64,000 nucleotides of DNA from Botryllus schlosseri (taxonomy: Eukaryota). The notes below the pieces were generated by a model. That model searched no databases. It saw only the letters and a list, made by a program, of their open reading frames with translations, and was not told where the DNA came from. Below are positions 27,193 through 41,700 of the stretch, piece by piece (within the stretch, counting starts at the first letter, position 1; each line of letters begins with the position of its first letter). The stretch spans positions 27,034,001-27,098,000 of the forward strand of contig CM119372.1 in NCBI GenBank assembly GCA_051294905.1. The letters run 5' to 3'. Both the position numbers and the translations under genes were made by a program.

Positions 27193-27809
27193 ACCGCATA
27201 GCATGAACACCATGAGTCCGTTCGTCGTCTAGTGTTCCTTTTTGCCTTTTAATTAGCTCATGACGTTGATTTTTTAGAACTCAATTGATCGTCTGCAGAT
27301 ATTATTTACTTCATATTCGTTGGAACTATTAAGCGTAATATCTGGAAGTTAATAACACGAACATTCATGGACATCGCGCATGCGCAAATACGCCATTTCA
27401 AAATTGGAATTACTTCGAAATAAACTTCGTGACTTCAGAATAACTACCATATTTGTATCGTGTTCTATTCTATTGTTGCTTCAAAGCGCAATTATTCGGA
27501 TACAAAAGATGTAGCTTGGCGAAATCTGTCTGCGTTGGTGGGGACGAATTGGCCCGTAACTTTGTGAAGCATGTTTGTCATTTGTTATATTACGTAATTA
27601 CCGACGTCATGTGACAGCTTCCAAAGTAATCCCTGAAATCGTACATGAACTGCTGTGCTGTGAACAGATTGTCTTCTACTTTTAGCTGGTATCACCCGGG
27701 TTCACGAAATGCGATTTTCTAGTCACATCGGATATCTAGTACAGGGTATTCAGCAGTCAGTGACGGCTCGTGAGTAGTATATAGGATCGGTCAACCGGTG
27801 CCTGGGGCT

Positions 27810-28590
27810 CTTATGGGCGGGGTGGCGATTCGCCTGGAAACCCGGGGTGGCGATTCGCCTTTTTAGACCCCCTCTGGGCCGCGATTCGCCATGTATTCTT
27901 ATGGGCGGGGTGGCGATTCGCCTTTTTTGCTATAGGCCGCGGTCGTGATTCGCCGTGAAAACCCGGGGTGGTGACTCGCCTTTTTTGCTATAGGCGGTGG
28001 CGGCGATTCGCCTATCGTGTATTCTTACGGGTTCTGTGGTGATTCGCCATGTGTTCTTATGGGTGCGGTCGTGATTCGCCGTGAAAACTCGTGGTCGTGA
28101 CTCGCCTTTTTTGCTATGGGCTGCGGCGGTGATGCGCCATGTATTATTACGCGATATGTGGTGACTCGCCATGTGTTCTTATGGGTGCGGTCGTGATGCG
28201 CACTTTCAACCATCTCTCGCGTGGTGTTGAATAGTCACCAACAATAACCGCACCAACGGAAACGTGGCTTGCAAGAGGATTAAGCAGTGCGTGCGACCTA
28301 TATTCCGAATGACCTGCGCGCTGAATTGTTTCACAGCCAACCGCGGTGGTCGTGACTCGCCTTTTTTACTATAGGTGGTGACGGTGATTCGCCTGTCGTG
28401 TATTCTTACGGGATCTGTGGTGACTCGCCATGTGTTCTTATGGGCGCGGTCGCATGCGGCTATTGCGTCTTATGGCGGGGGTGGTGAGCGGCTATTGATG
28501 CTAACACGAAACCCGGGGTGGCGAGCGGCACTTATTTCTTATGGCGGCGGGTCTTATTTCTTATGGGTGCGGTCGTGATTCGTACTTTCG
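27810..28590. repeat. GC-rich subterminal array of ~16 G[G/T]GA[T/C]TCGCC-like motifs (mirror ~40467-41247)
   Basis: GGCGATTCGCC, GTGATTCGCC and GTGACTCGCC recur every ~26-37 bp, with TTCTTATGGG, AAAACCCGGGG and TTTTTTGCTATAGG linkers. Confidence 0.9.
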
Positions 28591-37872: not shown

Positions 37873-38721
37873 ATGTCTAGAATTCAAACACATCCAAGTA
37901 AGTTCTTTAGCGACTATGATTACATCTACTTTGACGAGGGGAAATGGGAAAATTCAAATGGATACTACTGACGAACAAAAAGTGCAAAATGGTTTTATCA
38001 GATTTAGGTGTAGGATATCTTTTCGATTTCTTTACCAGAGTGTGTTTTACAAATATCTCTAGTACACCAACGTATAGGGTACAATTATCAAACGTCGTAC
38101 AAATTGTTTATGCGACGGCAACGACTTTGGGTTACTTGGTTTGGATCCTTTTGTAAAAGATTGTCGGACAATGGCGTTATAATCTTCTGTAATGATCGAG
38201 GTACGTGATCAAGTTTCCAATCAATTAATAATCGGACATACGACTTTGGTTTACCGAATCATAATATTTATAAAATGTTTGCTGGTATCATAAGACACAA
38301 ATCGAAATTCATATCAATAAAGACCTTTGCATGCTCTGAGTTTTGTGATGGCGTTTATTTATGAACTTGTATCAATAGTAGCACGAAACGCATTTATCAT
38401 TTTCGGTGTTATTGTTCACCCACTTCGACTGGTACTCGATGCCAAAAGTGATATTTTCTAATAACCTTTACCACAACATCGGGTCTAATTATCGTGAATA
38501 ATTTAATAATCAAGTCGTGTTCGAGCATTACAAAATCTCATATATCAAATCAATGTGTCAATCCTTATATTTACAGTATGATACCTTTCAATGTAAAACC
38601 GGCGTTTGATTGTAAGAAATGTATTCTCAACTACGTTGGTCAGGCATTCAAATCCGGTATACTCAAATGTAATATGTTAATCTCAAACCACACACCGAGT
38701 AGTATTTACTTTGGTTTATAA
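37873..38721 (+). pseudogene. Decayed intronless ORF (283 codons, 6 internal stops) containing an EGF-like domain at 38332-38442
   Basis: One frame from ATG 37873 to TAA 38721, with stops at 37969, 38005, 38011, 38206, 38362 and 38449. It contains CSEFCDGVYL*TCINSSTKRIYHFRCYCSPTSTGTRCQ, which matches the C-x-C-x5-G-x2-C EGF signature. Confidence 0.6.
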
Positions 38722-41700
38722 AATATATCAAGTAGTAATTACTTTGTCTTGCAAAATAGTAACGACTTTTACAGTTGAAAAACAAAAGACGCGTCGTAGG
38801 GATATGAATACAACCGAGCTTGTTATGGATTTTGGATTGTAGTGATTACTGGCGTAGTCTTGTCTACTTTTCATAAGGATACTTTTTGCTTTGGTTGGGT
38901 AAGTTACAAACGGATTGACTTGACAAGGTTTTTTGTATTTTACTCTTTTGTTTATGGGAAGATGTTAAAATGTTGAGACGTAATACTATTTCCGTTCACT
39001 CGATTACAACAAAAAATAACCTGATAGTTTGTTCAAGGTTTCGACAAATAGACTGAAATATTCCGATTTAACTCATCGCGTCGCAAGTCGATCGCGGTAT
39101 GCACAAGTGGTTGTCAAGTTAGAAATATTTACAACAGGTGCTATTTCATTGATTGATTCTATTGTGTGTAGTAACACATTAAAATATCGCGATAGTATTT
39201 ACTGAAACTCTATTTGATAAACGGAAAACTCAGTCGTGAATAGAGTTGTAAGTTTCAAGGATTGTTTCAAAGTATGATCTTGAAATGTGACTGGATCAAA
39301 GTTGGTAGTCATGTTTGTCAAAGTCCAAATATTTCATTTTGGATTATCTGGATTTACCTTTAGTACATCCCGCGAATGGATTCCGATGCGGTACTATAAC
39401 ATTTTTGATAATAATGACTCAAGGATTTTCAATCAACAATACTGGAATTTTTTGGTAATGCTAGAGTTGCCAAATGATTAGTTGCGTGTTTTTGTTAAGT
39501 GTTTGATTTCAAGTTAATAAAGACAATAACTGTGTAATGCACATAGTTGTGATTCTTGATTCTTGTAGAGTTATAGTTGGTATTGATTCTATAAGTGTGA
39601 AAACAGTGGCGCGGAATGTGCGAATAATTCGATGCGGCTGAAAGTCGGCGTCAGTAATATTCGGGTTACGTTCGATTCAACAAAAACGCGTTAAGGGATT
39701 TGTCAAAGGATTAGAGTTGTACCGATTTAAAACATTCAAATACGAATCGACTTCATTTGTGTAGTGAGTTTCATTTCAAGTTGATAAACTAACACATTGA
39801 TTGAATATTTTCATGGATCTTATCACGCTACTAAAGTCAGCCACTATTCTGGAGGCGTGAAACATATAGCGATCGCGGGCGAGTGACAAATTGTCGGTTT
39901 TCCAATCACCACCTGCGACGGTTCTGTGACAAACTAATTACCGAAATATTACCTTGTGGGCGGGTATGAGGAATTGCCATGTCTGAAGTATTATCCGGTG
40001 AGTGGTCGTTGGATTTTAAAATTATATCACACCCTTTTGAATAAGCGTTCACTTCACAAAGGATTAGGGTTAGAGCGGAAATAAGTGACAATTTGTCGCT
40101 AATCAAGTTACCGCGGTCTGTTATTCGTTACTTGTTAAATCTTACCAGCGATATCAAGTTCTGTGACAAACTGATTACTAAAATTTCACCGCGTGAGCGA
40201 TCGGTATGGTTATGACACCAAGTCGTGAAAGATGGTTATGACCGAGACATTATCTTGTCAGCGATCGCGGGGTTTTGCAAACTATTTCACAGCTATTTGA
40301 AGTGTTAATTCGTGAGCGTTGTTATTGTTGATATTCGAATCGCCGTCTACGCCAGCTCTGTGGTAAACTAAATACCAAAATATTACCTTGCAAGTGATTC
40401 CTAGACTTGGTAAACTATTTCACACCTTTTTTGCTGAAAGTACGACATACCGCCCGCAGTCTATACCGAAAGTACGAATCACGACCGCACCCATAAGAAA
40501 TAAGACCCGCCGCCATAAGAAATAAGTGCCGCTCGCCACCCCGGGTTTCGTGTTAGCATCAATAGCCGCTCACCACCCCCGCCATAAGACGCAATAGCCG
40601 CATGCGACCGCGCCCATAAGAACACATGGCGAGTCACCACAGATCCCGTAAGAATACACGACAGGCGAATCACCGTCACCACCTATAGTAAAAAAGGCGA
40701 GTCACGACCACCGCGGTTGGCTGTGAAACAATTCAGCGCGCAGGTCATTCGGAATATAGGTCGCACGCACTGCTTAATCCTCTTGCAAGCCACGTTTCCG
40801 TTGGTGCGGTTATTGTTGGTGACTATTCAACACCACGCGAGAGATGGTTGAAAGTGCGCATCACGACCGCACCCATAAGAACACATGGCGAGTCACCACA
40901 TATCGCGTAATAATACATGGCGCATCACCGCCGCAGCCCATAGCAAAAAAGGCGAGTCACGACCACGAGTTTTCACGGCGAATCACGACCGCACCCATAA
41001 GAACACATGGCGAATCACCACAGAACCCGTAAGAATACACGATAGGCGAATCGCCGCCACCGCCTATAGCAAAAAAGGCGAGTCACCACCCCGGGTTTTC
41101 ACGGCGAATCACGACCGCGGCCTATAGCAAAAAAGGCGAATCGCCACCCCGCCCATAAGAATACATGGCGAATCGCGGCCCAGAGGGGGTCTAAAAAGGC
41201 GAATCGCCACCCCGGGTTTCCAGGCGAATCGCCACCCCGCCCATAAGAGCCCCAGGCACCGGTTGACCGATCCTATATACTACTCTCGTGACAAGATCGG
41301 TAGATAGCAGAGGGTAGCTAAGCTCCAGAGGACGCGTAAAATTATTTTGGTCCAGATCAGACCTTGGCAAAGTGCGGCCCGCGGGCCAAATGCCGCCCAC
41401 TAAAAGTTCCTTGGAATTAAAACGTGAAACCTACACTTTAATGTGGCTGCGTGTATAAATTGAACCCAAAATTCGTTTACTTTCAACCCTGTTCATTAAT
41501 ACGCCGCGATTACGCAGACTACGTAATACGTATATCGCATAAGTAATACAGATTCAAAATAAATCAATGTAGTAAATATGCCGTAACAATTAATGTCACA
41601 AGAACTTACCAAATCTTTTTTGTCGCCATTGTCACATTACGCATTACACGGTCTGTTTTCAAATTGTTACGTGATATGTTTCCAAAACCCTAGTTCGTAA

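Follow-up and report, generated by a model that had tools for sequence, protein, structure and literature searches.

Maverick/Polinton elements reportedly go back to Kapitonov and Jurka in 2006, and it is still debated whether their replication is protein-primed and whether they spread as virions, direct evidence being scarce. Inverted duplications of one genome end occur in the incomplete particles of adenovirus. Foldback transposons of the FB/MuDR type make target-site duplications of about 9 bp, and their arms consist of short tandem repeats. In the available sections of Barreat and Katzourakis (2021, PMC8097293), Mavericks are described as having (AGT)2//(ACT)2 or (AG)3//(CT)3 ends and perfect 6-bp duplications, and in those of the Pannagram preprint (doi 10.1101/2025.02.07.637071) butterfly polintons are given terminal repeats of ~2 kb that contain the hexon and adenain genes. 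Our search of the literature found no palindromic or gene-less family of Polinton derivatives described, and the only match for 'non-autonomous Polinton' concerns Tlr1.

Here we characterise a palindromic element with Polinton ends, found in a 64-kb stretch of DNA (the whole stretch analysed, referred to as the window). Our conclusion is that the element probably derives from a Polinton/Maverick that is abundant in this genome, has lost its genes and its autonomy, and is in effect an endogenised copy-back (snap-back) defective genome. New in this analysis are a gene-bearing Polinton with common ends, the protease remnants, the arm statistics, the symmetric pieces and a mirrored composite.

The palindromic element and its family

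The element occupies 13,512 bp of the window (27773..41284) and is delimited by inverted-repeat search, BLAST and its AGTAGT...ACTACT end letters. Read directly, the left boundary is CTCGTG followed by AGTAGTATATAGG... and the right boundary is ...CCTATATACTACT followed by CTCGTG; we set the limits where we do because these two copies of the target-site duplication (27767..27772 and 41285..41290) flank the ends. The left arm (27773..34090, plus strand, 6,318 bp) is repeated as an inverted copy in the right arm (34967..41284, minus strand), as seen by both inverted-repeat search and self-BLAST, and the two arms make up 93.5% of the element. The inverted-repeat search reported 27769-34090 and 34967-41288 (6,322 nt) as 100% complementary, and BLAST of the element against itself aligned 6,319 nt of arm with 6 mismatches (at window positions 33135, 33305, 33578, 33593, 33826 and 33884) and no gaps. 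Between the arms lies a unique, non-palindromic spacer of 876 nt (34091..34966), the loop of the potential hairpin, in which no internal inverted repeat was found. The ends, the duplication, the inverted arms and the spacer that had been given in a preliminary description were thus all re-found, and a palindromic element with a 6-bp duplication is confirmed at this locus.

Two kinds of repeat are embedded in the arms. Close to each terminus is a cluster of seven copies of the 11-bp palindromic motif GGCGAWTCGCC (27824..28393, mirrored at 40664-41233), in a region with tandem-repeat periods of 32, 58 and 126; all 14 matches to the motif in the window fall within the two terminal regions, compared with 0.34 expected by chance. 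The inner arm holds a 41/82-bp tandem-repeat array (32658..33354, mirrored at about 35703-36399). Assignment of the element to the FB/MuDR-type foldback transposons was considered and rejected, the duplication being 6 bp long in 17/17 elements and the tandem arrays, at about 0.3 kb and 0.7 kb, occupying little of each 6.3-kb arm.

The coding content of the element is negligible, as had been claimed from the lack of a long intact ORF. Over one arm and the spacer, the longest overlapping stop-to-stop frame is 127 aa. No credible Pfam match was obtained for 105 of the 115 frames of at least 40 aa in this region, the other 10 lying in the 41-bp repeat array; three matches among the 105 reached E 0.0025-0.007, every one under the curated cut-off. 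The frame list and Pfam scan of the window element gave no polymerase frame and no retroviral-type (rve) integrase, and no Rfam family was found in the whole element.

The same palindromic build, with conserved arm-spacer junctions, was present in 12/12 full family copies read at other loci. The ends are AGTAGT...ACTACT in all 17 elements, palindromes and Polintons together, whose ends were read, and each of these has a different 6-bp duplication, perfect in 16 and matching at 5/6 positions in the remaining one. Other palindromic copies with different duplications, anticipated in the preliminary description, therefore exist. Spacers of the family fall into two types that have only two cores in common, corresponding to window positions 34243-34324 and 34621-34866. 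For a census we used a 19-mer from the spacer (34275-34293) that 10 of the 11 spacers compared contain; with up to 1 mismatch allowed, it gave 336+293 = 629 matches in the genome, and a control gave 0. Uninterrupted palindromes span 13,139-14,526 bp (n=17, SD 2.6%) and Polintons 14,936-17,263 bp (n=7). On this point the earlier interpretation needs correction: the palindrome did not arise through one recent accident at this locus, but is a build passed down in an old and diversified family with hundreds of copies.

Chimeric long reads are known to yield near-perfect long palindromes, and the palindrome here might accordingly be an assembly artefact, either a fold-back chimera or collapsed haplotypes. 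The element does resemble the product of a chimeric read, and none of the listed contigs spans the whole stretch, although the latter is expected of short-read contigs over a repeat. We nevertheless regard an artefact as extremely improbable, given that the same architecture recurs at all 12 full copies with conserved junctions and a separate duplication at each, that spacer cores number 629 across the genome, and that one contig, from what is probably the source sample, extends 29 nt beyond the flank into the element. In two other samples, contigs match the left flank as far as 27773 and then continue with 96 and 92 letters unlike the element, making these samples likely candidates for an empty site as judged at the left junction. 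Of the empty-site allele envisaged in the preliminary description, then, the departure of two contigs from the element sequence at 27773 has been seen.

Relationship to gene-bearing Polintons

The preliminary description had envisaged a gene-bearing Maverick with the same termini, and we found a Polinton with capsid and protease genes whose ends are up to 96% identical over 495 bp to those of the palindromes. The copy at C118:12233-28637 (16,405 bp) has AGTAGT..ACTACT ends and is flanked by the duplication TAGGTG, and its terminal repeat is 646 bp or longer; in two further copies the repeat measures 647 bp (98.3%) and 660 bp (99.5%). The Polinton is predicted to encode an adenain-like protease: the five best Foldseek matches of an AlphaFold model of modest confidence (pLDDT 63) are all to adenovirus proteinase (E 1.2e-3 to 5.6e-3), and residues H53, D67, Q95 and C102 are invariant across 4 sequences. 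A Polinton protein of 432 aa belongs to a family that is predicted to fold as a double-jelly-roll major capsid protein, an assignment made from the model (pLDDT 88) of a homologue, P0007, that is 47% identical to the genome's fragment and matches the major capsid proteins of SGIV, PBCV-1, Sputnik and mavirus (E 7e-16 to 5e-11). The capsid search gave 345 candidates in the genome, and of the 150 matches scored, 76 fall within an open frame of 432 aa, with identities of 94-98%. Pfam recognised neither the protease nor the capsid frames.

Evidence for the remaining Polinton genes is weaker. Polymerase-like matches to PF03175 reach at best 24.8 bits against a cut-off of 25.8. At three loci, open frames of 774-1,129 aa with such sub-threshold matches share the strand of the capsid gene and begin their run 8.35-8.40 kb upstream of it; a fourth locus has a frame of 1,212 aa at a distance of 10.5 kb. 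Genome profile searches at default settings gave no match for PF03175 or PF00770. None of the 150 scored rve integrase matches (of 1,389 candidates) fell within known Polinton intervals, nor did any of 101 A32-ATPase matches within the six such intervals examined.

By sequence alignment, the terminal region of the element (27773..28345, plus strand, mirrored at 40712-41284), which opens with (AGT)2, is homologous to the terminal inverted repeat of these Polintons. Element positions 37-572 of the window copy align to the first ~570 bp of the C118 Polinton at 80.5% identity, and identity is higher to the C13 Polinton (90.0%, element positions 163-573) and the C2 Polinton (86.8%, element positions 159-560). 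In the closest pair, the palindromic copy C2d and the C13 Polinton repeat, identity is 95.8-96.0% over 495 bp, and the 32-nt end is identical.

Further in, at 29499..30318 on the minus strand (mirrored about 38739-39558), blastn and tblastn revealed a decayed remnant of the protease gene and the last capsid codons, which reads toward the terminus as in the Polinton. At the nucleotide level, L015 2230-2394 matches window positions 29499-29663 at 70.8% (blastn, E 7e-12). Protease residues 178-187, 143-159 and 26-47 fall, in order, at 29546-29575, 29626-29670 and 30236-30301; the protein-level matches are weak (best tblastn E 5.6e-4), so that the identification leans on the nucleotide match and the order of the pieces. 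The capsid C-terminus matches 30250-30318, weakly (tblastn, E 0.065). The protease remnant is also present in copies C10, C12, C14, C13b, C6_17k, C7 and Y.

The terminal repeat and the protease remnant lie in both arms in the parental orientation, and therefore the arms descend from one Polinton end; what is expected of a copy-back molecule, namely that both halves be inverted copies of one parental end, is what these two features display. The copied-back Maverick end proposed earlier holds to this extent, although recognisably Polinton-derived sequence is confined to the outermost ~2.5 kb of an arm. Neither the spacer nor the inner ~4 kb of either arm matches any Polinton sequence read.

These observations also bear on whether the element could be an ordinary cut-and-paste transposon of the foldback kind (FB/MuDR-, P- or hAT-like), with a resemblance to Polintons at its tips only. 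Long inverted arms, internal tandem repeats and subterminal repeated motifs are what such a transposon would have. The homology, however, extends well beyond the tips, covering about 570 bp of the terminal repeat of capsid- and protease-bearing elements; the arms contain pieces of Polinton genes; no transposase was found in any family copy read; and the 6-bp duplication with (AGT)2 ends fits the Maverick signature given in the sections of PMC8097293 available to us. We therefore consider a foldback transposon very unlikely.

Arm identity and the route of replication

Within uninterrupted copies the arms are 99.5-100% alike, with mismatches of 0/6,293 (C10), 4/6,703 (C14), 6/6,319 (the window), 13/6,525 (C12) and 26/5,268 (C2a); between copies they are 70-97.8% alike, in a mosaic pattern. 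There are two possible explanations for near-identical arms in every copy. The first is that they are kept alike by gene conversion in the chromosome, in a Polinton-derived non-autonomous element moved by a helper integrase that recognises its ends. Large genomic palindromes elsewhere have arms kept alike by gene conversion, and inverted repeats with a short spacer between them recombine readily. The second is that the arms are made identical during replication.

Three observations speak against gene conversion. Copies with nested insertions in one arm, which we take to be older because of those insertions, have arms that differ by 0.7-1.4%, compared with 0-0.5% in uninterrupted copies, which fits identity at insertion followed by decay. 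In young copies, the outer arm is the cleanest part: in the window copy 6/6 arm differences fall within 955 bp at the inner end of the 6,319-bp arm (uniform expectation 1.2e-5), two of the six overlapping the tandem-repeat array, which mutates faster, and in C14 4/4 fall in the inner third of the arm. Against this, older copies such as C12 have their differences scattered over the length of the arm. Finally, freshly acquired pieces of the helper end are always present in both arms. In copy X, both arms contain an intact match of 212 aa (97%) to the gene at the Polinton's other end, and in copy C14L both contain protease residues 125-187 at 100%; kilobase segments of this kind, one whole gene included, are symmetric, yet conversion is inefficient across long unlike stretches.

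A composite at C2:34453730-34485313 is open to both explanations. Its outer element has the direct duplication CTTGTG, and its inner element, on the same axis, has flanks that are mirror images and no direct duplication; within the left half lie the spacer of the outer element itself and a portion of that element's second arm. Repair by fold-back at the locus could give such a same-axis composite with the outer duplication kept, and the layout would also be the expected product of copying back around the inner loop. On balance, we think it unlikely that gene conversion accounts for the arms. Arm identity, the symmetric helper pieces and the mirrored-flank composite together suggest that the second arm was rebuilt by copy-back around the spacer, and the inner-arm clustering of differences lends this further indirect support.

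Each arm is built of a Polinton terminal inverted repeat, a decayed protease/capsid end and then about 4 kb of non-coding DNA, and its (AGT)2 end is the sequence that protein-primed polymerases use for jumping back. Under copy-back, the helper's protein-primed polymerase would begin at either of the two identical ends. After one arm and the spacer had been copied, the new strand would fold back, or the displaced strand would form a hairpin, and the second arm would be completed using the first as template; near-identical arms would therefore result in each round, and new acquisitions at one end would appear in both. The helper integrase would then insert the double-stranded product, giving the 6-bp duplication. 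Dependence on a helper is likely, because the element has no genes and the genome has a matching helper family. The Maverick-derived snap-back reading of the preliminary description is supported, and template switching, integration in trans and packaging are steps that we infer.

A more specific proposal, which we offer tentatively and would not call probable, is that a Polinton virus gave rise to defective interfering genomes that were packaged, and that the palindromes are germ-line fossils of these, some of them perhaps still alive. Such genomes would replicate by hairpin turn-around from a protein-primed origin, would be held by a capsid limit to ~86% of helper length and would swap ends with the helper by template switching; being more numerous than the helper, with about 630 spacers against about 345 capsid-gene candidates, they could possibly damp its spread.

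Significance and comparison with known systems

A gene-less family that keeps only Polinton ends, with apparently rebuilt arms and narrow lengths, is the kind of trace expected of the debated cycle of protein-primed replication and packaging, and its about 600 natural replicates make origin use, turn-around synthesis and the length limit measurable. As far as the literature we found extends, it would be the first satellite-like Polinton parasite in an animal genome. Several hundred perfect palindromes of 13.5 kb would amount to roughly 1-2% of the genome, provided that most of them are complete; such palindromes are hot spots of rearrangement and are liable to mislead both genome assembly and repeat annotation.

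Foldback transposons (Drosophila FB, Tetris, Galileo) are similar in their long inverted arms, internal tandem repeats, short loop and mostly non-coding sequence. They differ from the present family in its Polinton ends, duplication length, gene remnants and arms of mostly unique sequence, for which no transposase partner was found. Butterfly polintons, in the portion of the preprint available, likewise have the capsid/protease end inverted onto the other end, and it is this same end that leaves a remnant here; they keep their genes and a long unique middle, whereas here the duplication is nearly total and the genes have decayed.

With Mavericks/Polintons, as they appear in the accessible parts of PMC8097293 and of Arkhipova and Yushenova (2019, PMC6431247), the family has in common its ends, 6-bp duplications and terminal inverted repeats, and its ~570-bp end is homologous to that of a Polinton in the same genome with a capsid gene, an adenain-like protease and long polymerase-like frames. 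The narrow length range is also like that of vertebrate Mavericks, for which the portion of the literature at hand reports about 10% variation around 17 kb. Unlike these, the element is gene-less, it is present in hundreds of copies, and its inverted repeat is 6.3 kb long and takes up 94% of its length, where theirs measures hundreds of bp. Finally, copy-back genomes of RNA viruses, as outlined in the available part of PMC6140465 for example, have one end duplicated in inverted form around a turn-around point, an origin at both ends, lost core genes and a need for a helper, which is predicted here also. Copy-back defective genomes are transient in infected cells, whereas the palindromes are inherited through the germ line, long diversified and number in the hundreds.

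The palindromic element and its family

Reading of the two ends gives gtgacgg CTCGTG|AGTAGTATATAGGATCGG... on the left and ...CCGATCCTATATACTACT|CTCGTG acaag on the right, with CTCGTG as an exact 6-bp direct duplication on both sides. Together, the end sequences and flanking CTCGTG delimit the element to window positions 27773-41284 (13,512 bp). A repeat finder places its inverted arms at 27769-34090 and at 34967-41288, either side of an 876-nt interval, and in a BLAST of the element against itself the two arms align without gaps over 6,319 bases, differing at 6 of them. Thus repeat finder, end reading and self-BLAST agree on the palindrome of ~6.3-kb arms, 876-bp spacer and CTCGTG duplication that the preliminary description had proposed. 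The absence of a long intact open reading frame was likewise borne out, the longest stop-to-stop frame touching one arm plus the spacer being 127 aa, with no credible Pfam match in 105/115 frames of at least 40 aa from this region. No Rfam family was found in window 20000-49000. G+C content is 51-54% in the outermost ~1 kb of both arms and 30-45% in the remainder. The spacer proved not to be a hidden palindrome in its own right.

The terminal 600 bp has many relatives in the 495-Mb assembly, mainly as facing pairs 10-17 kb apart. A 17-mer of the end gives 188 + 208 genome matches at up to 2 mismatches (control 32 + 34), an indel variant of this 17-mer gives 202 + 194 exact matches (control 0), and a 19-mer of the spacer core gives 336 + 293 at up to 1 mismatch (control 0). 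The preliminary description had regarded the element as one that propagates, and further palindromic copies with differing 6-bp duplications do exist. All twelve further full copies that were read have the palindromic build, with arms of ~5.3-6.7 kb and spacers of ~0.9-1 kb; nested elements make the arms longer still. The duplication is perfect in 16 of the 17 elements with both ends read, and different in each; in the seventeenth, 5 of 6 positions agree. The junction of arm and spacer lies at homologous positions across copies, and there are two spacer types that have in common only a ~245-bp core and a ~82-bp core. The palindrome is the build of the family.

Coding capacity is low in this family: in five copies stop-to-stop frames do not exceed 178 aa, the longest lying within a nested insertion, and Pfam searches of sets of 9, 105 and 42 frames returned flank genes and retrotransposon domains only. 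Frames of 505 and 234 aa at the centre of a 25-kb copy (C2:39408474-39433883) were considered as a transposase and set aside, being part of an unrelated 4.9-kb transposon nested in the spacer (L042:4588-7256) with its own inverted ends, GTGGGGCGG...; none of its frames (173, 505 and 234 aa) has a Pfam match. A similar end sequence is also present in the right flank of the window element, near 41385-41405. On contig C6, a 3.5-kb derivative of the family has repeats of 764 bp and encloses a single arm fragment, and the rve match beside it proved to be a property of the adjoining LTR retrotransposon. In the palindrome at C2:14762486-14776378 the spacer-core 19-mer occurs twice around the midpoint, in opposing orientations and ~930 bp apart, and the arms seem to reach into sequence that is spacer in other copies. 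The core GAWTCGC of a subterminal palindromic motif occurs nine times in the first 700 bp of the window element (motif clusters 27824-28393 and 40664-41233). Two other copies have seven such cores, C10 as the nearest copy has one, and Polinton repeats have two to three, so these putative binding sites change rapidly in number.

A gene-bearing Polinton with the same ends

On contig C118, one relative of the terminal region runs on into genes instead of an arm. This 16,405-bp element (C118:12233-28637) has AGTAGT..ACTACT ends, is flanked by the duplication TAGGTG and carries capsid and protease genes; its terminal repeats extend over at least 646 bp. It is thus a gene-bearing Maverick with termini homologous to those of the palindromes, such as the preliminary description had supposed as a helper. 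The protease frame (187 aa, or 147 aa from its methionine) lies ~0.8-1.4 kb from the terminus and reads towards it; H53, D67, Q95 and C102 are invariant in the four sequences of the helper protease family. Searched as sequence against solved structures, the protease gave no significant match. Its AlphaFold model is of moderate confidence (pLDDT 63), and in Foldseek adenovirus proteinase takes the first five places (E 1.2e-3 to 5.6e-3, probability 1.00), with other CE-clan proteases ranking next. Upstream of the protease is a gene whose relatives are proteins of ~430-450 aa. Its homolog P0007 shares 47% identity with the capsid fragment of this genome, and a model of P0007 (pLDDT 88) resembles the double-jelly-roll major capsid proteins of SGIV, PBCV-1, Sputnik and mavirus (E 7e-16 to 5e-11). 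A first look at the genome gave 345 candidates for the capsid gene, and by hand count 76 of the 150 matches scored among them fall, with 94-98% identity, within an open frame of 432 aa.

Default searches of the genome with PF03175 (protein-primed polymerase) and PF00770 gave no matches. At a loose threshold PF03175 gave sub-threshold matches (best 24.8 bits, cut-off 25.8). At three loci these are found within open frames of 774-1,129 aa, which share the strand of the capsid gene and begin 8.35-8.40 kb upstream of it; at a fourth, the polymerase-like frame is 1,212 aa and 10.5 kb from the capsid gene. The 101 matches of PF04665 belong to other element families, with none inside the six known Polinton intervals checked. 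Of 1,389 candidate rve (integrase) matches, 150 were scored, and none of these is placed in a known Polinton interval. A32-like packaging-ATPase frames of 205, 207 and 274 aa form several families, each with many near-identical copies, and since they lie outside the Polinton intervals studied, the genome seems to host further Polinton-like families. The Polinton end away from the protease has, 0.8-1.5 kb inward, an intact frame of 214-217 aa (L006:2241-2891, L020:2254-2904 and L045:265-906, all minus strand) with no credible Pfam match (one hit, E 0.11). Elsewhere, three identical rve matches in 436-aa frames at C12:26005104, 26024977 and 26044850, spaced exactly 19,873 bp apart, are a tandem array of some large unit.

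Two Polinton copies have terminal repeats of 647 bp and 660 bp, at 98.3% and 99.5% identity between their own ends, and the first ~570 bp of the palindromes is homologous to this repeat. Identity in the terminal repeat is 80.5-90% between the window copy and three Polinton copies, and reaches 95.8-96.0% over 495 bp, with an identical 32-nt end, between the palindrome C2d and the Polinton C13; a second end variant is also common to a Polinton and palindromic copies. Inward of the shared repeat, each window arm holds a remnant of the protease gene, detected both at the nucleotide level (165-bp match, 70.8%, E 7e-12) and as three protein fragments in the correct order and in Polinton orientation. 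The same remnant is present in the palindromic copies C10, C12, C14, C13b, C6_17k, C7 and Y. Shared repeat and protease remnant together indicate that the arms descend from the protease/capsid end of a Polinton. A separate palindrome, C9:128083-143949 (L051/L052), is inserted within a Polinton remnant, bordered by a capsid-gene fragment on the left (C9:127723-128091) and, on the right, by a protease fragment at 90% identity.

Proposed renewal of the arms

Copies compared with one another show a mosaic of identities, from 70 to 97.8%; in C10, the nearest to the window copy, the outer arm is 97.8% identical, the inner arm and spacer 94-95%, and the terminal ~365 bp differ. Within copies, arm mismatches are 0 in 6,293 aligned bases in C10, 4 in 6,703 in C14, 6 in 6,319 in the window copy, 13 in 6,525 in C12 and 26 in 5,268 in C2a. 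Copies with nested insertions in one arm only have a higher arm divergence (0.7-1.4%), consistent with arms that start out identical when the element inserts and decay afterwards.

The composite at C2:34453730-34485313 (31.6 kb) comprises an outer element, Y, with the direct duplication CTTGTG, and an inner element, X, on the same axis, which is bordered by mirror-image sequences, atagtaaacata / tatgtttactat, instead of a direct duplication. Its left half runs from outer arm to outer spacer, then through 1.5 kb of the outer element's other arm into X, and its right half is the mirror of the left at 99.92% over 14.4 kb. A polymerase travelling from the outer end to the loop of X, and then copying back, would yield exactly this arrangement, although fold-back repair in the chromosome could also have made it. 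In both arms of X, the gene from the Polinton end opposite the protease is represented by an intact 212-aa match (97%), and the outer arm of X matches that end at 91.9% over 1.1 kb; both arms of copy C14L carry protease residues 125-187 at 100% identity. Taken with the mirrored composite, these two-arm acquisitions suggest that an arm is actively rebuilt from its partner. Two further wide end pairs, C1:16768420-16810257 (41.8 kb, enclosing three spacer cores) and C1:21066653-21100468 (33.8 kb), are probably also nested or copy-back composites.

If rebuilding proceeds by copying back, a turn slightly past the loop would renew the outer arm only, and inner clustering of arm differences is then expected. 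All six differences in the window copy fall in the innermost 955 bp (33135-33884; chance if evenly spread 1.2e-5), two of the six being in a tandem array. All four in C14 fall in the inner third, and in older copies the differences are spread along the whole arm.

Insertion, length and relation to known elements

Contigs of two other samples (X6 and X7) carry variants of the flanks, following the left flank to 27773 and continuing with 96 and 92 letters unlike the element. Position 27773 lies a single base beyond the duplication and is A in element and right flank alike. A contig of the likely source sample enters the element and ends 29 nt in. The X6 and X7 pattern is the one that an empty site would give, and these contigs are likely to represent one.

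Cross-referencing end pairs, spacer-core matches and capsid matches by hand on contigs C1 and C2, we obtained lengths of 13,139-14,526 bp for 17 uninterrupted palindromes (mean 13,737, SD 363, 2.6%) and 14,936-17,263 bp for seven Polintons (mean 15,991). The palindromes keep to this narrow range although their sequences diverge by up to 30% and differ by numerous indels, which fits a length limit of the kind proposed for Mavericks themselves (PMC8097293). A recent burst of copies made from similar masters would give the same picture.

Having neither polymerase nor integrase, the window element is not an autonomous Polinton. Judged from its sequence, it probably acts like a snap-back defective genome, and its ends place it with Polintons. 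Ends of the form (AGT)2//(ACT)2 with perfect 6-bp duplications have been published for vertebrate Mavericks, where the authors connect the repeated terminal motif with the jumping-back step of protein-primed replication (PMC8097293). In searches of the main texts of openly accessible papers, we found no palindromic gene-less Polinton family. The closest published case is that of butterfly polintons, in which the hexon and adenain genes are included in terminal repeats of ~2 kb (doi 10.1101/2025.02.07.637071).
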